This document shows positions 2,598-27,692 of a stretch of DNA of 27,692 bases, piece after piece. The translations under genes were made by a program, and so were the position numbers. The DNA is taken from positions 1-27,692 of the forward strand of contig JBHLNT010000042.1 in NCBI GenBank assembly GCA_048941265.1. The letters are read 5' to 3'. The notes beneath the pieces were generated by a model. That model saw nothing but the letters and a program-made list of their open reading frames with translations, searched no databases and was not told where the DNA came from. Every line of letters begins with the position of its first letter. Position 1 is the stretch's first letter. This DNA is from Promethearchaeota archaeon. Lineage in GTDB: Archaea; Asgardarchaeota; Lokiarchaeia; Sigyniarchaeales; SOKP01.

Positions 2598-4091
2598 TTA
2601 GATCTTTGAAATAGGGGCACCACATTTGTCACAAAAAATATCAAAAACAACAGACTGCTGACAATTTGGACAGATTATGTATAATCTTGCTCCACAATTG
2701 ACACAAAACTTATCGGGTTTAACATTTTGTTTACAATTAGGGCAAGTTATGTAGGATATACTGGGAGCAGGAGTAGATTCGGGTTTAGAATATTTTTTTG
2801 ACTGTCTTATTATAATTACAAATGTAAAAATAATAACCGCTGTTAAGATACCAAAAAACTCTACACCAGAAAGATATGCAAGTATTGCTTCCAAAAGTAT
2901 TGATCCTTCTTCAATCTCATAGATTAATGTATTTCCTATCACAGTAATAAAGGTATAAAGGGTATAATTAAGTAATATTAAGCTAACTGCTAAATTACTT
3001 ACCGCATTTTCAGAATCGCTATTTAAAGGTGTAGTAAGGAATTCTTGATCATAACTTTGATTAGATATATGCTCTTTAGATTTAATATTAAATTTTTGCA
3101 GTTTTTTATCTCAATCATTATAATATTCTCTCAATTCATCACCAATATCATCTAAAGTTCCTTGAATAAAGAAAAACACTATAACAATAAAAGAAATTAT
3201 AGGTCCAGCTAAATTAACAAACAATCCAATAATAAATGGTATAAGAATTGCTGCAACGATTGTATAGATGGCCGATATATGACTTATTGTATAGCCAGAT
3301 CTCCAATTTCTTTTTATTAGAGCTGGAATTCCTATAAAACCTAAAATTAGGAACATAAATGAAAGAAGTCCTAGCATAGCAAATAACATCACATCAACTG
3401 CACGAATATATTGAAAGGTAAATAACATTACTAAATAAAATATCCAAGGAATTGGAAATAAAAGAAAGGACCAAGACTGATTGTCATAGAACTTTTCAGA
3501 ATATTTATCTTCGAATGATTGCATCTTATCTTTCGTTGCTATAAATGCTAAAATTCCCATGATAGCCATTGAACTAAAAAACAGAAAGACTGCTAAGAAA
3601 ATCATTATCAATATCACTATTTGGGTAAGAATGATATAGAACATAATTTGTGCGATTAGAAATAAGAACATTATTAAACAGATTGTTATAAACAATATCA
3701 ATCTAATTTTTCTTGTTCTTGAAGCATATTTAGAAGTGTCCCAGTACTTCATTTTAAGAAACTTATTTTTTTCAGGATAATTCTTGTAATTTTTCGCACT
3801 CTTATAGAAAAATAGGAGTTCAATAATAATAAACAAAAATACAATTAAGAGAAGTCGGTCGCCCGCAACTAAGAAAATTAATGTAATTTGATTAAATTCC
3901 CCTAAGGATGTTATTAGTAGGAATGCTATCCCGTAATATATTCCTATAGAAACTAACAAAATCAATAATAACTTTATATAATAGCGGAATTCAGGAGTTT
4001 GCCATAAAAATTTTATTCCATCAAAATGTTTTTTTACATGTGTTACTGATGTTTCTTCTATTTTATTAGATAAAGAGTTATTTTCGCCCAT
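2598..4091 (-). CDS. Multi-pass membrane protein with a C-terminal double zinc ribbon, interrupted by one in-frame TGA (3113-3111): nonsense pseudogene or readthrough
   Basis: ORFs 3111..4103 and 2598..2942 are in the same frame and the intervening 3110..2943 is stop-free (DKKLQKFNIKSKEH...YTFIT). Likely start is ATG 4091, 8 nt after GGTGA. C-terminal CPNC/CVNC/CPNC/CDKC. Confidence 0.75.
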
Positions 4092-17729: not shown

Positions 17730-19076
17730 TTGACAATTCAAGACATTGTACTCTTTCCAGGCTGTATGATATCATACCGTTTGCCCTTTATTGAAGTGTC
17801 AGTAAGAAAAGCATTGGACTTTTTTGGAATTCAATTTACAGAAAATCTAAACTTTAGTTGTTGTCCCGAACCGAATGGAATCAAAAATACTAACGAGTTA
17901 TTATATTCTGTAACTGCTGCTAGAAACCTCGCAATTGCCGAATTAGAAGGGAGAGATATTTTAACCCCATGTAATGGTTGTTTTGAAACTTTAAAAGGGA
18001 TACGGAGTGAGATTAAAACAGATTCCCATTTTCGAGCTAAAATTAATTCTTATCTTAATAAGATTGATTTAAATGTTAGTGGAGAAAAAGATGTCTATCA
18101 TTTAGTTGAATTTTTTCACAAATTAGGAAAAGATACAATTAAAGACAATATTGAATATCCTTTAACTGGCTTAAGAGTTGCAGTTCATTACGGGTGTCAT
18201 TTTCTCAGGCCTAGTGAAAAAATCCAAATGGATGATCCGATGGAGCCTCACTTTTTTGATACACTAATTGAAGATCTCGGGGCAAAGAGTGTTGATTATG
18301 ATCGTAAAATGGATTGTTGTGGAGGTAGTCTTGCCAGAGCGGATAATCCAGATTCTGGAATGGAGCAAATTCATACAAAGTTAGAAGCGATGAAAGATGC
18401 AAGAATCGATTGTATTGTTGTTGGTTGCCCCCAATGTTTTATTCAATTTGATCACCTCCAACAAGACTTGAAAAAATTGGATTATGAGTATGATATTCCT
18501 GTGCTATATTATTCTGAACTTTTATGTATAGCATTGGGAATTGATATCAGAGAGATTCTTGAAAAATATCATCGAACTCAAGTTAAGAGTGTTTTTGAGA
18601 AGGTGGATCTTATCCATCAAAAAAATGAAGAGATCAAAAAATATTTTGATGTCGAATTTTTAAAAAAATGTTATTCCTGTGGGGCATGCAATAATGATTG
18701 CCCTATAGCGAAAATATCAGATTTTGATCCAAACGAAATAATTGGAAAAATTCTTGATGGGAAAATAGATAAGGTAATAAAAGACCCTCTAATTTGGATG
18801 TGTCTTGATTGTTATGTGTGCTATGAATTGTGCCCCATGAGAGTAGGTTTAGTGGAAGTTTTTACAAAGCTAAGAAATTTAGCAAGAGAAAAGGGGTATA
18901 TTACAAAGGGATTTAAAGGAGAATTTGATTCTTTTAAAAAGATGGGAACAGTTGCGATGTTTTCTCATTCAGCCAGAAAGAGAGTCGGTTTGGAATCCGC
19001 TAAACCAGAACTAAGTGATTTAAAAAAATTAATCAGTGAGATAGAAAAAGAAAAGGAGATGGAAGGGAGTAGCTAA
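17730..19076 (+). CDS. hdrBC: Heterodisulfide reductase HdrB-HdrC fusion-like protein (two CCG domains plus a 2x[4Fe-4S] domain)
   Basis: HdrB motifs FPGC, SCCPEP, TPCNGCF, HYGCHFLRP, DCCGG and GCPQCFIQFD. C-terminal HdrC motifs CYSCGACNNDCP and CLDCYVCYELCP. TTG start. Confidence 0.88.
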   Translation: MTIQDIVLFPGCMISYRLPFIEVSVRKALDFFGIQFTENLNFSCCPEPNGIKNTNELLYSVTAARNLAIAELEGRDILTPCNGCFETLKGIRSEIKTDSHFRAKINSYLNKIDLNVSGEKDVYHLVEFFHKLGKDTIKDNIEYPLTGLRVAVHYGCHFLRPSEKIQMDDPMEPHFFDTLIEDLGAKSVDYDRKMDCCGGSLARADNPDSGMEQIHTKLEAMKDARIDCIVVGCPQCFIQFDHLQQDLKKLDYEYDIPVLYYSELLCIALGIDIREILEKYHRTQVKSVFEKVDLIHQKNEEIKKYFDVEFLKKCYSCGACNNDCPIAKISDFDPNEIIGKILDGKIDKVIKDPLIWMCLDCYVCYELCPMRVGLVEVFTKLRNLAREKGYITKGFKGEFDSFKKMGTVAMFSHSARKRVGLESAKPELSDLKKLISEIEKEKEMEGSS

Positions 19077-19077
19077 C

Positions 19078-20271
19078 ATGCATTGGAAAAATTATACTAG
19101 TTTACCAGAAAAGTTTCGAAATGAAAGGGTGTTTGATGGTTGTGGTATTTCGGGCTATATTAACATAGATGGTACAAGAGATTCTGGAACTAAAGTTATT
19201 GATATGTTATGTATTTTACATGACAGAGAAAATGGGCTTGGAGCCGGTTTTGCTGCTTACGGAATATATCCGAAATATAAAGATTATTATGCACTTCATT
19301 TTTTATTTGATGATGAGCCAAGTAAAGAAATTGTATTACAGCATTTAGAAAAGACAGGGTATATAATTCAATCTGAAGTCATTCCCACTAAAACACCTTC
19401 GAATGTTGATAATCCCCCAATAACTTGGAGAGTGTTTTATGAGCCAAAAGAGATGAAGAGTATTTCAAAAGATGATCAAATGGTAAGTTTAGTAATGGAA
19501 ATTAATGAGAAGTTTGATGGAGCATTTATCATGTCATCGGGCAAAAATATGGGTGTTTTTAAGGGGAATGGATGGTCCCATGAAATAGCGGAATATTATA
19601 AAATTGCCGATTATAAAGCGTATATGTGGTTAGCCCATAGCCGATTTCCAACGAATACTCCTGGATGGTGGGGTGGAGCCCATCCATTTAATTTATTAGG
19701 GACTTCTGTAATCCATAATGGAGAGATAACTTCATATGGAACGAACATGAGATATTTAGAATCATTTGGTTATAAATGTACATTATTTACGGATACAGAA
19801 GTAATAGCATATTTATTTGATTTATTAGTCAGAAGGCATAAAATACCAATTTCAATAGCGAGTCTAGCCTTAGCTCCACCTTTATTTGATGAAATTATGA
19901 GAATGGAAAAAAAATATCAAATTGCCCTTAAAAATATAAGGGCAACTTACCGTTCTGCTATGCTAAATGGGCCATTCTCCATTGTAGTGGGTTTTAACGG
20001 TCTTGTGCCAACAATGATTGGATTAACAGATAGAAAAAAATTAAGACCTTTAGTTGCAGCCATCTCAGATGATGAGAATACTGTATATCTGAGTAGTGAA
20101 GAGGCTAGTTTTAAGAGATTGATGCTAAATCAATCTTCCTCATTTAAATTTAGGGAAATTTGGCATCCGAGAAGTGGTACGGCGATTGTCGCTAGATTAG
20201 GAGATGGTCTTTTAAGAAATGGCCTTGAAAAGCCATTTGAAAAATTAAAATTATCTGTAATAGGTGAATAA
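19078..20271 (+). CDS. gltB1: Glutamate synthase domain 1 (class II glutamine amidotransferase subunit)
   Basis: 'DGCGISG' (Cys22, Ntn nucleophile after propeptide removal), 'HDRENGLGAGFAAYG', 'AHSRFPTNTPGWWGGAHPF', 'IHNGEITSYG' and 'DRKKLRP'. Confidence 0.92.
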   Translation: MHWKNYTSLPEKFRNERVFDGCGISGYINIDGTRDSGTKVIDMLCILHDRENGLGAGFAAYGIYPKYKDYYALHFLFDDEPSKEIVLQHLEKTGYIIQSEVIPTKTPSNVDNPPITWRVFYEPKEMKSISKDDQMVSLVMEINEKFDGAFIMSSGKNMGVFKGNGWSHEIAEYYKIADYKAYMWLAHSRFPTNTPGWWGGAHPFNLLGTSVIHNGEITSYGTNMRYLESFGYKCTLFTDTEVIAYLFDLLVRRHKIPISIASLALAPPLFDEIMRMEKKYQIALKNIRATYRSAMLNGPFSIVVGFNGLVPTMIGLTDRKKLRPLVAAISDDENTVYLSSEEASFKRLMLNQSSSFKFREIWHPRSGTAIVARLGDGLLRNGLEKPFEKLKLSVIGE

Positions 20272-20274
20272 TAA

Positions 20275-21795
20275 ATGTCAATAAATCATGCAGTCCCAAC
20301 ATATTTTCGTGTTAATATCGATAGGGATTATTGTAAGAAATGCAAACGATGTGTTACCCATTGTTCTTATGGAGCATTATCTTTTAATGGAGAACGTATT
20401 GTAGCTGATGATAGCCTATGTGTGGCTTGCCAAAGATGTGTTGCGATGTGTCCGGGTAAAGCAATTAGAGTCGTAAAAAATGATTCTTATTTACCACCAC
20501 ATGGAAATTATACAAGAAGGATACGCAATATCATATGGGCTCAATCTGGGAATGGAGGTGTTTTATTAAGTGCCACTGGAAATGATAGGCCCATCAGAGT
20601 CATATTTGATGATTTGCTTCTTGACGCTTGTCAAGTTACAAATCCCGCAATTGATCCGTTAAGAGAAACTATTGAAACCAAAATATTTTTTGGTCGAAAG
20701 CCGAAAAAACTTGATTTCTCTATGGATGAGATAGATCCATCAAAAGTCTCATTAAAAACTGAAATTATGCCTCATTTCGAGATAGATATGCCAATTATGG
20801 TGGGTCATATGAGCTTAGGATCTATTAGTTATAATGCGTGTATGGCAATTTATCAGGCCTCTAAAGAGCTAAATATTCTTGCAGGTTCTGGAGAAGGAGG
20901 ACTTCATCCCGATTTCTATGAATATGGTCCGAATATCATTTCTGAAGTTGCATCAGGAAGATTTGGAGTGGATATTAACTATTTACACAATGTAGCGGGA
21001 CTTGAGATCAAGATTGGTCAAGGAGCAAAACCAGGACACGGAGGTCATTTACCAGGAGAGAAAGTCAATACTTTAATATCTCAAACGAGAATGATTCCCA
21101 AAGGTAGTGATGCATTGTCGCCTTATCCGCACCATGATATTTATTCAATAGAAGATCTTGCACAGTTAATCGCAGCTTTAAAGGAGGCTACTCGATATAA
21201 AGTGCCAGTTGGTGTGAAAATCGCAGCAGTTCACAATTCTGCACCAATAGCAGTAGGAATAGTTAGAGGAGGAGCGGATTTCTTGACTCTTGATGGTTTC
21301 CGTGGCGGTACTGGTGCAGCCCCAAGGATTATTCGGGATCATGCTGGTATTCCAATCGAATTAGCAATTGCTTCTGTTGATAAAAGATTACGAGAAGAGG
21401 GCCTTAGAGATGAGGTCACTTTAGTGGCGGGAGGATCTATTCGGTATTCTGCAGATCTGATAAAGGCGATTGCATTAGGAGCCGATGTAGGAATGTGCTG
21501 TTTACCAGTGCTAATCGCAATGGGTTGTAGAGTTTGCCAACAGTGTTTTAAAGGACTATGTTCATGGGGAATTGCTACTCAACAAGAATATTTAGTTAAG
21601 AGATTGGACATTGATGTTGCGAGGAATCGAATTATTAATCTCTTCCATAGCTGGAATGAAGAATTAAAGGAAGTTTTAGGAGCAATGGGAATAGATTCCG
21701 TCGAATCACTTCGTTCAAATAGGGATAGATTAAGATATATTGGTCCAAATCCCAAAATTGCTGATATATTAGGAGTAAAACATGCAGGTGAATAA
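20275..21795 (+). CDS. gltB2: Glutamate synthase domain 2 (FMN-binding, archaeal GltS type, with an N-terminal ferredoxin domain)
   Basis: CKKCKRCVTHC and CVACQRCVAMCP; MSLGSIS; GEGG; VASGRFGV; EIKIGQGAKPGHGGHLPGEKV; SPYPHHDIYSIEDL; CRVCQQCFKGLC. Confidence 0.96.
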   Translation: MSINHAVPTYFRVNIDRDYCKKCKRCVTHCSYGALSFNGERIVADDSLCVACQRCVAMCPGKAIRVVKNDSYLPPHGNYTRRIRNIIWAQSGNGGVLLSATGNDRPIRVIFDDLLLDACQVTNPAIDPLRETIETKIFFGRKPKKLDFSMDEIDPSKVSLKTEIMPHFEIDMPIMVGHMSLGSISYNACMAIYQASKELNILAGSGEGGLHPDFYEYGPNIISEVASGRFGVDINYLHNVAGLEIKIGQGAKPGHGGHLPGEKVNTLISQTRMIPKGSDALSPYPHHDIYSIEDLAQLIAALKEATRYKVPVGVKIAAVHNSAPIAVGIVRGGADFLTLDGFRGGTGAAPRIIRDHAGIPIELAIASVDKRLREEGLRDEVTLVAGGSIRYSADLIKAIALGADVGMCCLPVLIAMGCRVCQQCFKGLCSWGIATQQEYLVKRLDIDVARNRIINLFHSWNEELKEVLGAMGIDSVESLRSNRDRLRYIGPNPKIADILGVKHAGE

Positions 21796-21800
21796 TAAAG

Positions 21801-22625
21801 TTGATAGATAGTACTCTTATTTTAAGTAAAGAAAACAAAAAAACTATAGAAATAGATGCTTGCCCGAATGGTGAGTCCATAATCTATCAAGACTTAAATG
21901 AGAAAATTCATGAAGCTATAAGAGATGGATATGAGAGATTAATTTTGAATAATGTCTGTGGACAGCGATTTATAGCTGCATCCCTACAAGGAGATTTTGA
22001 GATAATTATAAATGGTGTTCCTGGAAATGATCTCGCTGTTTTTATGGATGGTCCTAAAATCATTGTTAATGGAAATTGTGAAGATCAAACTGGTAATACG
22101 ATGAATAATGGAATAATTCTAATAGATGGTGATGGTGGGGATGTCATTGGTCTATCCGCTAGAGGCGGTAAAATATATGTAAAAAAAGATGTGGGATATA
22201 GAGTTGGCATTCACATTAAAGAATACGAAAATCAATTTCCTGTCATAATCATCGGTGGGACGGCAAAAGACTTTTTAGGAGAATATATGGCAGGAGGGTT
22301 AATACTAGCTCTTGGACTTAAAATCTTACCTGATGGCTCTGTTATTGAGAGTGAAGAATCGATATGCGGAGGAGAATTAGGAACCGGAATTCATAGAGGC
22401 AAGATAATATTAAGAACTGAAGAGAATTTAGAACCGAAATTAGGAGTAGGAGCAAAACTTTTCGAAATAACTCCAGAAGAACTTAAAGAAATTGAACCAC
22501 TATTAAGAGAATTTTGCGAGTTTTTCAATATACCATATGAGATTATCGGGAATAAGCCTTTTAAAGTTATTAAACCAATCTCAAAAAGACCATTTGGTGG
22601 CAATTATTGTGGCCAAATTATATAA
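21801..22625 (+). CDS. gltB3: Glutamate synthase domain 3 (GXGXG beta-helix subunit)
   Basis: 'NVCGQRFIA', 'GVPGNDLAVFMDG', 'GNTMNNG' and 'FLGEYMAGG' GXGXG repeats; TTG start 5 nt after gltB2. Confidence 0.92.
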   Translation: MIDSTLILSKENKKTIEIDACPNGESIIYQDLNEKIHEAIRDGYERLILNNVCGQRFIAASLQGDFEIIINGVPGNDLAVFMDGPKIIVNGNCEDQTGNTMNNGIILIDGDGGDVIGLSARGGKIYVKKDVGYRVGIHIKEYENQFPVIIIGGTAKDFLGEYMAGGLILALGLKILPDGSVIESEESICGGELGTGIHRGKIILRTEENLEPKLGVGAKLFEITPEELKEIEPLLREFCEFFNIPYEIIGNKPFKVIKPISKRPFGGNYCGQII

Positions 22626-23183: not shown

Positions 23184-24215
23184 TTAAATACTAACTGTCC
23201 AGCCAAACTCATCTTCGATTTCTAGGCGCTGGATTCCAGTTAATAAATTATAGAGTTTGATTGTTAATTCACCGGGCTGATGATTATTAAACACTTTTGT
23301 TTTCTCTTCCATATTGATTGAACCTATTGGAGTAATAACGGCTGCAGTTCCTGTACAAAACGTCTCTGTGCAATTATCTTCGAATAATTCTTTATATGAA
23401 ATATCTCTTTGTTCAACCTTAACTCCTAATTTTTTCTCGGCAAGCTCTAACACAGATTTAACTGTAATACCTTCAAGTATAGTCCCTATGAATCTAGGGG
23501 TGACAAGATTGCTATCTATGACACCACAAAAGTTAGCCGCTCCCACCTCATTTATGTATTCTAAATGTACAGAATCTAAATAAAGAATTTGAGCGAAACC
23601 TTTCATTTTTGCTTCTTTTGCTGGTTTCATGGTCCCCGCATAATTCCCTCCCATTTTTGTAAATCCCGTTCCTCCCTGAGAAGCTCTTGTGTACTTTTTT
23701 GAAATTTCAATATCGATAGCTTTAAAACCTTCAGGGAAATAAGGGCCGACAGGTGAGACAAAAATGATAAATTTAAATTCTTCGGCGGGTGCAACACCCA
23801 ACATCGGACCATTTCCAATCATTAAAGGTCGGATATATAATGCTCCGCCACTATCATAAGGCGGAATATATTCTTCATTAGCTCTTACAACGGTTTTAAG
23901 CGCATTGATGAATTTATGAGGATCGTATTTCGGCATAAGTAATCTTTCAGCGCTTTTGTTGAGTCTTTTTGCATTTTCACTTGGTCGGAATAAAGTGATA
24001 TCACCATTCTTTGCTCTCAATGCTTTCATTCCTTCAAAAAATGTTTGACCATAATTTAAGGCACAGGCAGCAGGGGAAATTTCTAAATTTCCAAAAGGAA
24101 CTAATTTACCCTCGTCCCATTCACCATCTTTATAGTCCGAAACGAACATCATTTTGGTTTTTATAAATTTAAAACCCAAATTATAAAAATCTATATCATT
24201 ACTTTTTACACTCAT
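23184..24215 (-). CDS. ilvE: Branched-chain amino acid aminotransferase (PLP fold type IV)
   Basis: LNYGQTFFEGMKA, LYIRP, PVGPY, PLP lysine in TKMGGNYA, EVGAAN, ILEGIT and TGTAAVITPI. Confidence 0.96.
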   Translation of the reverse strand: MSVKSNDIDFYNLGFKFIKTKMMFVSDYKDGEWDEGKLVPFGNLEISPAACALNYGQTFFEGMKALRAKNGDITLFRPSENAKRLNKSAERLLMPKYDPHKFINALKTVVRANEEYIPPYDSGGALYIRPLMIGNGPMLGVAPAEEFKFIIFVSPVGPYFPEGFKAIDIEISKKYTRASQGGTGFTKMGGNYAGTMKPAKEAKMKGFAQILYLDSVHLEYINEVGAANFCGVIDSNLVTPRFIGTILEGITVKSVLELAEKKLGVKVEQRDISYKELFEDNCTETFCTGTAAVITPIGSINMEEKTKVFNNHQPGELTIKLYNLLTGIQRLEIEDEFGWTVSI

Positions 24216-24249
24216 TATACTTTAATCTCTTTTTTGTTTTTTGTATTGA

Positions 24250-24447
24250 ATGACCAATAAGCAAAAGCGCTTTTCTTAAATGACCTCTTTCTAAAAATAT
24301 TATCTACAAAGCAAGAAAAATCTTCCAATCAAATATGTTAGAGAAAAAGTCAGGAAAAGGTCTCTTGCTTTATAATACTAATGCTGCTGCTACAATAACA
24401 TCAATGGCTATATCCATAGCCAGTTTTTTTATAGCATTAGTATTATA
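24250..24447 (-). promoter_or_regulatory. Candidate attenuator RNA (three hairpins and U-tracts) in the ilvE 5' leader
   Basis: 15-bp perfect inverted repeat 24371-24385/24433-24447 with an inner 7-bp stem 24405-24411/24416-24422; a 14-bp stem 24361-24374/24305-24318; and the AAAAGCGCTTTT hairpin at 24263-24274. Confidence 0.65.
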
Positions 24448-24456
24448 TGAGGCCAT
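24370..24456 (-). CDS. Putative ilvE leader peptide (28 aa, Ile/Val/Leu/Ala-rich)
   Basis: ATG 24456 to TAA 24370 gives MASYNTNAIKKLAMDIAIDVIVAAALVL*; it ends 154 nt upstream of ilvE on the same strand. Confidence 0.7.
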   Translation of the reverse strand: MASYNTNAIKKLAMDIAIDVIVAAALVL

Positions 24457-24476
24457 TATATCTGAATTGTACTTTC

Positions 24477-24494
24477 TATAATTTAAACTTTGTC
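24477..24494 (-). promoter_or_regulatory. BRE/TATA-like promoter for the leader-ilvE transcript
   Basis: Minus strand GACAAAG-TTTAAATTATA, about 25-30 nt upstream of the leader ATG, consistent with a leaderless or near-leaderless start. Confidence 0.5.
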
Positions 24495-24667
24495 TATTAA
24501 TATGGGTTTGTTTTCCCACGTTTGGTTTGGAAAAGAAAAAATTATAAAAAAAATATGAAAAGTTAAGAAAAGTTAAGAAATTATAATAGAAGAGTAAAAA
24601 ATGGAATGATAATTAATAGAATTAAGCATTAGAGTTTTAATAAATTAGATATGAATAATTTTAAGTT

Positions 24668-26329: not shown

Positions 26330-26477
26330 AATTATTCTGTCGACATTTAAGAAGCAAGAAAATAGAATTACTAAATATTCATGCTAAAAAAGAAAAAGCC
26401 TTTTATGAATATTTAAAAAGAAATGGAGTTTGAAATTAAAAAATAAAAAAATGGATAATTGATATAAAATTTCTTAA

Positions 26478-27692
26478 TTATATACCTAATTTCTCCAATT
26501 GCTCTTTATTTTTTAAAACAACGTCTTGAGTTAATGGGTAATATTTCCAAAAGATAAGGGTTCCTATAAACATAACAATAGCTGGAATGACCCCCGCCAA
26601 AAGGCGAATTCCCCATAATACTAGGTGTATATCAGCAACCGCAGCCGCTAACTCAGCATATGATTCCTTGCCTGGAACGAATCCTGTGAGATTATGTACA
26701 ATTGCTATTATTAATTCGTCGATAGTGGCAGCAAGTCGACCAAAAAATGCAGAAGCTCCAACGAGAATAGCTTTTTGATCCTTTTTAGTTCGCACCGCAT
26801 AGTCATCTTGAACATTTGCTGCTATAATTGTGTAGATAAACGCCCAAAGTGAGCCCAAGCAAAATCCGAGAATAAATATTATTATTAATAAATCTAATGT
26901 TGTTTGAAAAAATGTTATTGGGACCATAGCTGCAGAAACTAAAAATCCCCCGATGGCTCCCACCTTTTTGTTGTTGTTCATTGTTTTTAAAATTTTAAGC
27001 CAGAATGGAATAGAAATTAAAGCACCTAAAAGTAGGGCAACAAATATGAGAGTTATATCGTCGGTACTGGCACGCGCAACAAAGACTATTATATAGATAG
27101 TATTTCCCATCATTATACTAGTTGATGCAACCCACGCTGTGACAAAAATAAAATAAACAATGAAGCTTTTTTGTTTAACAACTTCTTTTATTCCCTTGAA
27201 AAATGTCATTCTCTCATATTCGCCCGTGTAATAGCGATCAATTACAACCTTATCTTCTCGGGCACCAGGAAGAAATAAAAGACCGCCAATAAGAGCTATG
27301 AATGCAACCATTGCACCCATAAATGCAAATCCCTCTCTTCCAGCACCAGCACTAAGGAATAGGGGAGGAATTACTAAACCAATGGCTTGAGCCACCATAT
27401 CTATAGGCATGAAATATTTCGATAATTTTCGGCGCTCTTCTTCAGTGCGAAATAAATCTGGGCGTAGAACTCCAAGATTTACCTGCACAAGTGATCCAAA
27501 TGTATCAAAAATAAATAATGAGAAAATAAGCCACCAAAATATTGGCCAAGGATTGCTGGAACCATCCACATCTGGAGCTGAGAAGATAAGATACAAACTT
27601 AAACACCAAGGGACGACCCCTATAACAATCCAAGGGAATCGCCTTCCGAATCGTCTTGTGAGTTTTGTATTTCTATCTACTAAAAACCCAAG
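26478..27692 (-). CDS. MFS transporter, GPH/MelB (MFS_2) family, 5'-partial
   Basis: The frame is open to the window end (LGFLVDRNTKLTRRFGRRFPWIVIG...), so the true start lies outside the window. Multiple TM segments and a C-terminal 'YPLT' motif. Confidence 0.9.
   Translation of the reverse strand, partial: LGFLVDRNTKLTRRFGRRFPWIVIGVVPWCLSLYLIFSAPDVDGSSNPWPIFWWLIFSLFIFDTFGSLVQVNLGVLRPDLFRTEEERRKLSKYFMPIDMVAQAIGLVIPPLFLSAGAGREGFAFMGAMVAFIALIGGLLFLPGAREDKVVIDRYYTGEYERMTFFKGIKEVVKQKSFIVYFIFVTAWVASTSIMMGNTIYIIVFVARASTDDITLIFVALLLGALISIPFWLKILKTMNNNKKVGAIGGFLVSAAMVPITFFQTTLDLLIIIFILGFCLGSLWAFIYTIIAANVQDDYAVRTKKDQKAILVGASAFFGRLAATIDELIIAIVHNLTGFVPGKESYAELAAAVADIHLVLWGIRLLAGVIPAIVMFIGTLIFWKYYPLTQDVVLKNKEQLEKLGI

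Follow-up and report, generated by a model that had tools for sequence, protein, structure and literature searches.

A divergent gene pair lies in a 27,692-nucleotide stretch of DNA from a Promethearchaeota archaeon (GenBank assembly GCA_048941265.1, contig JBHLNT010000042.1; this whole stretch is referred to below as the window). On the minus strand is a 343 amino acid branched-chain amino acid aminotransferase (ilvE, type II; 23184–24215), identified by a match to Pfam Aminotran_4 and to the NCBIfam models NF009897 (422.6 bits against a cut-off of 307) and TIGR01123, both above their cut-offs. The divergent neighbour is nadE, whose closest named homologues are from Promethearchaeota or Lokiarchaeota archaeon, consistent with an Asgard affiliation. 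Upstream of ilvE, on the same strand, is a TATA-like box (TTTAAATT, 24487–24480) that ends 23 nt before an ATG (24456–24454) and starts 31 nt before the A of that ATG. In archaea this spacing places the transcript start at, or 1–3 nt before, the AUG, such that the ORF that follows is predicted to be leaderless. The ORF (24456–24370, stop codon TAA at 24372–24370) comprises 28 codons, reads MASYNTNAIKKLAMDIAIDVIVAAALVL and ends 154 nt before the ilvE ATG at 24215. Its last 13 residues include eight isoleucine, valine or leucine residues, four alanines and one aspartate.

The ORF and the region behind it have the potential to form extensive RNA structure. A 15-bp perfect inverted repeat (24433–24447 and 24371–24385, elements B and B′) forms hairpin 1 within the ORF, with B covering codons 4–8 and B′ the last codons (A-L-V-L) and the first bases of the stop codon. 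It is the only perfect repeat of that length with a 3–80 nt spacer in the window, and such a repeat was found in 6 of 300 first-order Markov copies of the window. At the tip of hairpin 1 is an inner stem-loop, UGGCUAU-GGAU-AUAGCCA (24422–24405, arms 24422–24416 and 24411–24405). The second stem (hairpin 2) is part of a longer repeat with 22-nt arms that are 77% complementary (element D, 24374–24353, and element D′, 24326–24305), overlaps hairpin 1 by 4 nt and contains the stop codon. Because D starts at the stop codon, a ribosome at or near the stop would cover it. The loop of hairpin 2 is formed by a pyrimidine tract (element E, CCUUUUCC-UGACUUUUUCUCU, 24360–24340) with a U5 run at 24348–24344, 21 nt after the stop codon.

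Further downstream lie element F (AGAAAGAGGUCAU, 24292–24280), which resembles a Shine–Dalgarno sequence, element G (AAGAAAAGCGCUUUUGCUU, 24277–24259) and a second GGUCAUU (element G′, 24255–24249). In the minimum-energy fold the GACUUUUUCUCU segment of the pyrimidine tract (24351–24340) pairs with F, G pairs with D and extends the E:F helix into a long helix, and the 5′-terminal AAUGGCCUC (element A, 24457–24449), which includes the start codon, pairs with G′. Element A can pair instead with F. The 279-nt stretch folds better than shuffled sequences on this strand (z = −3.36, 2 of 200 shuffles as good) and less so on the other (z = −2.37). The TATA-like box, the ORF, both stems and the alternative pairing of the U/C tract, on which the original prediction rested, are all present in the sequence.

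Distribution and codon content of related leaders

To determine whether this arrangement is a one-off, we first built a covariance model from five ilvE leaders. This proved too narrow (69 of 135 genomes of the same family) and was replaced by a second model, R2, which at E ≤ 1e-4 finds matches in 126 of the 135 genomes and in 13 of 13 genera, with 1–4 per genome. There are about 250 matches in all. In a phylum-wide sample, R2 matches 22 of 25 genomes of this family and 1 of 125 genomes of other families. The genome from which the window comes has three strong copies, on C266 (this one), C351 and C41 (the leuS leader at 3219–3399). Of the approximately 250 matches, 137 were read, including 40 picked by hand and 11 new places taken from the loci of the phylum-wide sample. 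As the members are related, the counts that follow are not independent events.

All 137 members read have an AUG-started ORF of 20–37 codons at the same place, despite in-frame length changes, and in each case the element is on the same strand as, and upstream of, a gene. The AUG lies about 31–34 nt after a TATA-like box, and the best TTTWWWWW match starts between −37 and −30 in 119 of 136 members, with peaks at −34 (45 members) and −31 (37 members). The fraction of alanine, valine, isoleucine and leucine is 0.27 in the first halves of the ORFs but 0.72 in the second halves. After five members were dropped, the remaining 132 were classed by downstream gene, a recognisable gene on the same strand being found for 127 of them, and the most common residue of the last 12 was compared with that gene. 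Leucine is dominant in 47 of 47 leaders of leucyl-tRNA synthetase (LeuRS), where it makes up 6.9 of 12 residues on average against about 10% leucine genome-wide. Alanine is dominant in 16 of 16 ilvE leaders, in which 10.9 of the last 12 residues are alanine, valine, isoleucine or leucine (A 5.2, V 2.7, I 1.4, L 1.6). Isoleucine is dominant in 11 of 13 leaders of an FrhB–TrmB fusion, and valine in 9 of 12 leaders of a 45-aa ORF and in 2 of 2 leaders of acyl-CoA dehydrogenase. Alanine and leucine codons are used in a synonymous mix like that of the genome.

The correspondence is not perfect, however. Alanine has no obvious link to a branched-chain aminotransferase, the class designated SP74 shows only a weak bias, and many members precede the FrhB–TrmB fusion or small proteins of unknown function, for which searches of Pfam and NCBIfam gave nothing. 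Part of the hydrophobic tail, the final V-L-L, is forced by hairpin 1. No such leader was seen in front of the isoleucyl-tRNA synthetase, valyl-tRNA synthetase or MetRS-like genes of this genome.

Covariation of two alternative folds

RNAalifold alone found no consensus (0 pairs) on a 65-sequence MAFFT alignment, because the helices shift register between classes. We therefore used an alignment-free swap test, in which the binding of each sequence's own partner is compared with that of swapped partners, together with helix columns defined by hand, with slid and shuffled controls; it should be noted that these columns were chosen after looking at the sequences. In the swap test own partners bind better for A:F (−7.9 against −6.4 kcal/mol), B:B′ (−15.0 against −9.8), D:D′ (−18.2 against −12.4), D:G (−11.7 against −8.3), A:G (−6.0 against −4.6) and E:F, with 0 of 2000 permutations as good in each case. 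The control pairs A:D′ (1686 of 2000) and B:F (108 of 2000) show no such advantage. Nor was any seen for a further hairpin between the codon-run region and D or E that might act just upstream of the U tract (ORFmid:D 863 of 2000, tail:D 752 of 2000, ORFmid:E 1563 of 2000).

On the 65-sequence alignment, fold 1 is 72.6% paired (36–57% when partners are slid) and fold 2 is 69.0% paired (42–63%), with covariation scores above 500 of 500 shuffles for both. Individually, the helix formed by element A with F is 78.5% paired and the E:F helix 82.4%, whereas the D3′:G helices are only 52–54% paired in the fixed alignment. When column 269 of F is A, the corresponding base in element A is U in 21 of 22 sequences and that in E is U in 17 of 22, and C in element A (12 sequences) occurs only with G in F, indicating three-way covariation of A, E and F. 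Hairpin 2 covaries even though the long helix that pairs D and E with F and G is the more stable in 120 of 130 members, by 8.7 kcal/mol on average, which fits a co-transcriptional role. The presence of many G–U pairs and the better fold on this strand point to action at the level of RNA rather than DNA.

A run of five or more T residues occurs within +10 to +50 of the stop codon in 109 of 131 members, against 68.4 expected from shuffles, with the first T5 starting at +21 in 51 of the 109, although this tract would be transcribed before D′, F and G. The genome also encodes a candidate β-CASP protein in a 641-aa frame.

Proposed leader-peptide attenuation and alternative readings

Taken together, these results suggest that the stretch 24264–24458 (minus strand) is one member of a family of cis-acting, ribosome-sensing leader-peptide attenuators in an Asgard (Promethearchaeota/Lokiarchaeia-like) family, a reading to which we assign a probability of roughly 0.7. 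The comparative data establish the conserved archaeal-type promoter, the small ORF at the 5′ end of the transcript as placed by that promoter, the enrichment of its last ~12 codons for one or a few hydrophobic amino acids that depend on the gene behind it, the placement of hairpin 1 within the ORF and of hairpin 2 with its 5′ arm at the stop codon and a U tract in its loop, the more stable alternative pairing of D and E with F and G, and the competition of the 5′ AUG region with E for F. What the ribosome does is inferred. With no RNA run among 13 runs, translation of the ORF and any response to amino acid supply remain inferences from sequence alone. In this view, a pioneer ribosome would load on the nascent 5′ AUG and the time it spends on the hungry codons at the end of the ORF, and so on B′ and D, would depend on charged tRNA. 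That occupancy would decide whether hairpin 2 forms first, leaving the U tract exposed and F captured by A, or whether E pairs with F and masks the U tract. The most likely output is premature termination or cleavage at the U tract (of the U-tract/aCPSF1–FttA type), and our preferred sign is that stalling gives more full-length mRNA, because the largest class controls LeuRS and the opposite sign would be a positive feedback on charging. Both output and sign are guesses, however, and this version is little more likely than not. No structure upstream of the U tract other than hairpin 1 covaries, so how a ribosome would change termination at the tract itself is not evident, hairpin 2 and F being made only after it.

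The original prediction of a leader peptide plus competing RNA structures through which the ribosome senses amino acid supply is thus strongly supported as to the kind of element, the ORF, its predicted 5′-terminal start, both stems and the alternative pairing to AAAGAGGUCA being conserved and covarying across the family, but as a whole its interpretation is only partly supported. The prediction emphasised branched-chain residues, whereas alanine is the dominant residue of the ilvE class. The second stem that it proposed is not the stable state, and it did not identify the competition of the 5′ AUG region for F. Its proposed logic, in which a ribosome reaching the stop gives termination and stalling gives read-through, remains a hypothesis. 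In addition, ketol-acid reductoisomerase was not found in the four genomes of this genus that were searched, making a simple analogy with the biosynthetic ilvGMEDA operon doubtful.

Leader-peptide attenuation is a textbook bacterial mechanism that depends on coupled transcription and translation and on hairpin terminators, and we found no description of such a system in archaea in full-text literature searches (supplementary files, which might list archaeal small ORFs or RNA motifs, lay outside these). On the boldest reading, which is tentative and less likely than not, this would be the first ribosome-mediated attenuation system of archaea, a ‘ribulon’ of about 250 leaderless leader peptides in one Asgard family. 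The dwell time of the pioneer ribosome on leucine, isoleucine, valine or alanine codons would decide between a hairpin that displays an oligo-U tract and locks the 5′ AUG away and a longer helix that hides the tract, and charged-tRNA levels would thereby gate aCPSF1/FttA- or U-tract-dependent termination of LeuRS, a branched-chain aminotransferase and other genes. If the family works as proposed, archaea, here a relative of the lineage that gave rise to eukaryotes, also use the translating ribosome as an amino acid sensor. The family would then provide a natural and compact test bed for archaeal transcription–translation coupling and for how U-tract/FttA termination can be regulated, about 250 unannotated small ORFs would be annotated, and a regulon (LeuRS, a BCAT paralogue, acyl-CoA dehydrogenase, an FrhB–TrmB fusion and small acidic proteins) would be defined in organisms that are very hard to grow.

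Among known systems, the bacterial ribosome-mediated transcription attenuators of amino acid operons (trpL, ilvL of ilvGMEDA, ivbL of ilvBN, leuL; PMC11857589; PMC1262725) likewise have a short ORF in the 5′ leader with runs of relevant codons near its end, mutually exclusive helices of which one overlaps the ORF or stop so that ribosome position can choose, a U-rich tract that follows and several loci per genome. The archaeal elements differ in having a TATA-box promoter and a predicted leaderless ORF with no Shine–Dalgarno site, in that no G+C-rich hairpin is directly followed by a U run (the U tract lies in the loop of hairpin 2) and in the participation of the 5′ AUG itself in the switch. 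There is also no sequence or model similarity: no Rfam family matched the window at gathering score (best E = 0.11), and neither Leu_leader, Trp_leader, His_leader, Thr_leader nor the leu-phe leader appears among the seven matches with E ≤ 10 in 24180–24520. In E. coli pheST, as with the 47 LeuRS leaders, an aminoacyl-tRNA synthetase gene sits behind a leader peptide (there the Phe-rich pheM) rich in its own amino acid, but that system has a classical bacterial terminator. T-box riboswitches share the targets (aminoacyl-tRNA synthetase and branched-chain amino acid genes) and the quantity sensed (tRNA charging) but bind tRNA directly, are defined by a stem I with a specifier loop and the conserved T-box sequence, and have no ORF; no T-box match was found in the window. 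The leaderless polycysteine ORFs of the mycobacterial ‘Cys ribulon’ (Canestrari et al., bioRxiv 10.1101/834739) are also sensory first cistrons at several independent loci that share one logic, in which stalled ribosomes alter mRNA structure, but they are bacterial, sense cysteine and act by masking the ribosome-binding site. In archaea, oligo-U tracts downstream of stop codons and aCPSF1 (FttA) are described in the sources cited here as general terminators (PMC8716108; PMC7515710) rather than as regulated attenuators coupled to a leader peptide, and the FttA structure paper puts forward steric competition between ribosome and FttA as a hypothesis only (PMC11616081).

Of the alternatives, all of them unlikely, the one that survives best is that the element is the same but control is translational, transcription being unaffected. 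A and E resemble anti-Shine–Dalgarno sequences whilst F, G′ and the main ribosome-binding site resemble Shine–Dalgarno sequences; F could act as a decoy; the mycobacterial precedent works by masking, and in single cases, such as the leader designated L056, E can pair over 11 bp with the main site. No 16S rRNA, sought for its anti-Shine–Dalgarno end, was found in the assembly. Masking of the main site is not supported by two crude tests, however. Predicted accessibility shows no consistent change with no ribosome, a stalled ribosome, a ribosome at the stop or a queue in 70 leaders (weak evidence, since nested folding cannot see pseudoknots), and the best downstream site for E is near a long-ORF start in only 7 of 47 LeuRS and 2 of 16 ilvE members.

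Slightly less likely still is a structured non-coding leader (a riboswitch, or an RNA bound by tRNA or protein) whose open frame is a by-product of the UAN-rich hairpin. The conserved N-terminus (M-I/T-S-N-N-T) and the final V-L-L are fully explained by elements A, B and B′, and the structure is large and covaries. Against this, the frame is open in 137 of 137 members, with in-frame insertions, whereas by our estimate from base composition about 15% of 24-codon frames would be open by chance in DNA of 32% G+C. The class-specific runs lie mostly outside the B:B′ stem and use several synonymous codons, and no Rfam family matched.

It is also improbable that the small ORF is an independent gene for a small hydrophobic (membrane or toxin-like) peptide with its own U-tract terminator, the RNA structure controlling that gene only and the neighbouring genes reflecting synteny. 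The C-terminus is hydrophobic, a U tract sits 21 nt after the stop as after ordinary archaeal genes, a 5′ end that pairs with a distant 3′ segment recalls type I toxin mRNAs, and there is a very weak, chance-level Rfam match to ohsC (E = 8.7). However, the peptide is conserved in composition rather than in sequence, the composition follows the downstream gene, the covarying elements D′, F and G lie beyond the supposed terminator, and the hydrophobic run of about 12 residues is short for a membrane helix. Finally, although the region lies between divergent genes and TrmB- and Lrp-type regulators are common in archaea, it is very unlikely that the repeats are DNA operators for a transcription factor, since the pairings keep G–U wobbles that would be mismatches in DNA, the arms are 26–170 nt apart and the element travels with different downstream genes irrespective of the upstream neighbour.

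The ilvE leader and its distribution

The features under study all lie on the minus strand. A TATA-like box, TTTAAATT, is found at 24487-24480 and is followed 23 nt later by an ATG at 24456. The ORF that begins here reads MASYNTNAIKKLAMDIAIDVIVAAALVL and stops at 24372-24370, 154 nt before the ATG (24215) of a gene encoding a 343 amino acid protein. Pfam places this protein among the class IV aminotransferases and it exceeds the NCBIfam equivalog cut-offs for branched-chain amino acid aminotransferase (NF009897, 422.6 bits against 307; TIGR01123, 355.4 against 250). A gene for a glutamine-dependent NAD synthetase, whose named close homologues are from Promethearchaeota or Lokiarchaeota archaea, runs divergently from 24668. 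The observation behind the original prediction held: the 15-bp perfect inverted repeat inside the ORF, the 22-nt, 77% repeat that starts at the stop codon and the pairing of the U/C tract with AGAAAGAGGUCAU are all present. The perfect repeat is unique in the window, and a repeat like it occurs in 6 of 300 first-order Markov simulations. The stretch folds with z = -3.36 on this strand and -2.37 on the other, and a search against Rfam gave 0 matches at gathering score (best E 0.11). Elsewhere in the window, a 12-bp perfect inverted repeat (26436-26447 and 26505-26516) lies at the 3' end of the MFS transporter gene, in the convergent gap with the NAD synthetase gene, whilst four adjacent plus-strand genes (17730-22625) carrying CCG/4Fe-4S, GATase_2, Glu_synthase (with ferredoxin start) and GXGXG domains look like a split, archaeal-type glutamate synthase cluster.

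Homologues of the aminotransferase were found in 36 of 41 related genomes. Among 30 fetched loci, five had a similar ATG-started small ORF at the same distance upstream, including one from another genus. Alignment of these showed that the very 5' end, AAUGACCUC, pairs with GAGGUCAUU about 170 nt downstream, with a compensatory AUGAUC/GAUCAU variant. A covariance model of the five (R1) matched 69 of 135 genomes of the family, including places that are not next to ilvE. A second model (R2), built from 65 dereplicated members, matched 126 of 135 genomes (13 of 13 genera) at E <= 1e-4, with 1-4 matches in each and about 250 in all. In samples of wider groups, R1 matched 38 of 126 genomes of this family and 0 of 24 genomes of six other families of the class, whilst R2 matched 22 of 25 genomes of this family and 1 of 125 of other families of the phylum, the one being a partial match at E 4e-5.

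The window's genome (G000) has three strong copies, on contigs C266 (the present one, 123.9 bits), C351 (133.1) and C41 (100.1), together with two chance-level matches. Of the two further strong copies (C41:3219-3399 and C351:12008-12186, both minus strand; loci L120 and L118), one precedes leucyl-tRNA synthetase (leader MISNNNMKNSLSLQILSKVLLLLLL) and the other precedes two small ORFs (leader MTSNTTTSNTLLRVLGVLVLVVVL). In a related genome (locus L037, G006:C178:13703-13855), a truncated copy of the ilvE-type leader, comprising the ORF, its hairpin and the two elements that follow (D and E, see below) but lacking element F, has no gene behind it on the same strand. It lies about 3 kb downstream of an ilvE gene and looks like a remnant.

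Predicted leader peptides and the genes behind them

We read 142 matches, about half of the total: 90 R1 places (88 matches in fetched loci plus the two other copies in the window's genome), 40 R2 places picked by hand, 11 further new R2 places among the loci fetched for the phylum-wide sample, and one weak match in the window's own genome (L121). Five had no ATG at the expected place, of which three were truncated matches (L091, L095, L110) and two were weak (L171, L121). The other 137 all have an ORF of 20-37 codons that starts at the first bases of the model. The best TATA-like 8-mer starts 30-37 nt before the ATG in 119 of 136, with peaks at -34 and -31, which, by the usual archaeal spacing, puts the transcript start at or just before the AUG. 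No Shine-Dalgarno sequence precedes it. Alanine, valine, isoleucine and leucine make up 27% of the first halves and 72% of the second halves of the peptides. The conserved N-terminus (M-I/T-S-N-N-T) is the 5'-terminal element A and the 5' arm of the first hairpin (B) read as codons, and the final V-L-L is the 3' arm of that hairpin (B').

For analysis of composition, five members were left out: L040, whose start had been wrongly assigned by script, and L070, L101, L141 and L133, in which the usual stop is mutated so that the ORF runs 3-4 codons further, into element D, before the next stop. The last four are natural variants that could inform the role of ribosome position. Among the remaining 132, the most common residue of the last 12 is leucine in 47 of 47 leaders of leucyl-tRNA synthetase (mean 6.9 Leu; the gene was identified by Pfam and tblastn), alanine in 16 of 16 leaders of ilvE (Ala 5.2, Val 2.7, Ile 1.4, Leu 1.6), isoleucine in 11 of 13 leaders of a roughly 480 amino acid FrhB/FdhB-TrmB fusion, and valine in 9 of 12 leaders of a 45-aa ORF and in 2 of 2 leaders of acyl-CoA dehydrogenase. 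A class in front of a 65-74-aa protein (SP74, n = 19) has a weak bias. Genome-wide, these residues make up about 5-10% each. The leaders use the synonymous codons in roughly genomic proportions (for example GCA 35, GCT 30, GCC 14 and GCG 4) and the runs occupy codons -1 to about -12. Whilst the LeuRS leaders of different genera differ greatly in sequence, they keep the leucine bias. This is the strongest argument that the ORF is read and that it senses a particular charged tRNA. Related genomes are not independent.

Several of the genes behind the leaders are of unknown function. The protein behind the Ile-rich leaders (L079:302-1723 and L075:295-1746, both plus strand) fuses a ferredoxin-like start, the FrhB/FdhB N and C domains and a TrmB-type winged helix. 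Behind the Val/Leu-rich leaders sits a family of small acidic proteins of about 45 aa and about 62-74 aa, with motifs such as ILDYYKDW and PGEIEIEDE..LGYLW..Y (for example at L048:1263-1457 (-), L056:1726-1929 (+), L086:1239-1460 (-) and downstream of the leader on C351 of the window's genome). It often lies convergent with a class I/II aminotransferase gene, and searches of Pfam and NCBIfam gave no match. Also in the window's genome, about 130-230 nt upstream of a gene for a 920-aa class I synthetase on contig C34 (tentatively valyl-tRNA synthetase), the sequence looks like a tRNA gene interrupted by an insert, a possible intron.

Two predicted, mutually exclusive RNA folds

In order after the ORF come D, which starts at the stop codon, E, a tract of 51% U and 21% C, D' followed by an A/U-rich spacer, F (GAAAGAGRUCAU), G, and often a second GRUCA (G'). 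Two predicted folds exclude each other. In fold 1, D and D' form hairpin 2 with E in its loop, and A:F closes a three-way junction with hairpin 1. In fold 2, D+E form a long helix with F+G, and A pairs with G'. In a test that needs no alignment, each sequence's own partner binds better than partners taken from other members for A:F, B:B', D:D', E:F, D:G and A:G (0 of 2000 permutations each). Two control pairings show nothing, and a third (E:D', whose windows overlap D) shows little (8 of 2000).

With helix columns that we defined on the 65-sequence alignment, fold 1 is 72.6% paired, against 36-57% with slid partners, and fold 2 is 69.0% paired, against 42-63%. Covariation scores are above all 500 shuffles for both. 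The E:F helix is 82.4% paired, and one column of F (G or A) covaries with both its A partner (UG 25, UA 21, CG 12) and its E partner (CG 22, UA 17, UG 15). The long helix is predicted to be the more stable state in 120 of 130 members, by 8.7 kcal/mol on average, and the unconstrained fold contains E:F in 114 of 130. Yet D:D' covaries, which points to a structure that matters while the RNA is being made. The many G-U pairs show selection on RNA of this strand, not on DNA.

A possible mechanism and its relatives

What the comparison shows is the shared ORF, its gene-dependent codon runs and the two covarying folds; translation of the ORF, the sensing of charged tRNA, the output and its sign are inferred, from sequence alone. 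In the view we propose, a ribosome could load on the 5' AUG only before F and G' are transcribed, as afterwards the AUG is paired in either fold, so the sensing would be co-transcriptional. A ribosome held on the hungry codons at the end of the ORF would keep hairpin 1 open and cover D, in which case hairpin 2 could not form and E would be left to pair with F. A ribosome that finishes and leaves would let hairpins 1 and 2 form, A would then capture F, and the U tract would stay single-stranded in the loop. An oligo-U tract is the kind of signal that archaeal RNA polymerase and aCPSF1/FttA use (PMC8716108; PMC7515710). T5 or longer is found in 109 of 131 members, against 68.4 expected, starting 21 nt after the stop in 51 of 109, and the genome has a beta-CASP protein in a 641-aa frame. 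The U tract is, however, made before D', F and G, so the folds cannot act on termination exactly at the tract, and no other upstream pairing covaries. On this version, stalling would give more full-length mRNA, which is the stable feedback for LeuRS.

The opposite sign is also possible. A ribosome that keeps up with the polymerase could shield it at the U tract from FttA, as hypothesised in PMC11616081, and this would suit catabolic targets. Masking of the main ribosome-binding site finds no support in two crude tests.

By function, the element fits the class of leader-peptide attenuators, whilst by sequence and structure it belongs to no described family. The interpretation given in the original prediction, a ribosome-mediated attenuator upstream of ilvE, is partly supported, its output step remaining inferred. 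Full-text literature searches, which did not extend to subscription journals and supplements, found no archaeal case. The nearest relatives in logic are the bacterial ilv, leu and pheST leaders and the leaderless polycysteine ORFs of mycobacteria.

The dominance of alanine in the ilvE class is unexplained and argues against the attenuator reading. Ketol-acid reductoisomerase (PF01450) was not found in 4 of 4 genomes searched of the window's genus (91-99% complete), but was found in 26 of 41 genomes of the family. This aminotransferase may therefore work in salvage or breakdown rather than in de novo synthesis. The window's genome also has a second ilvE paralogue (C70:50511-51521), and R2 matched nothing on that contig.
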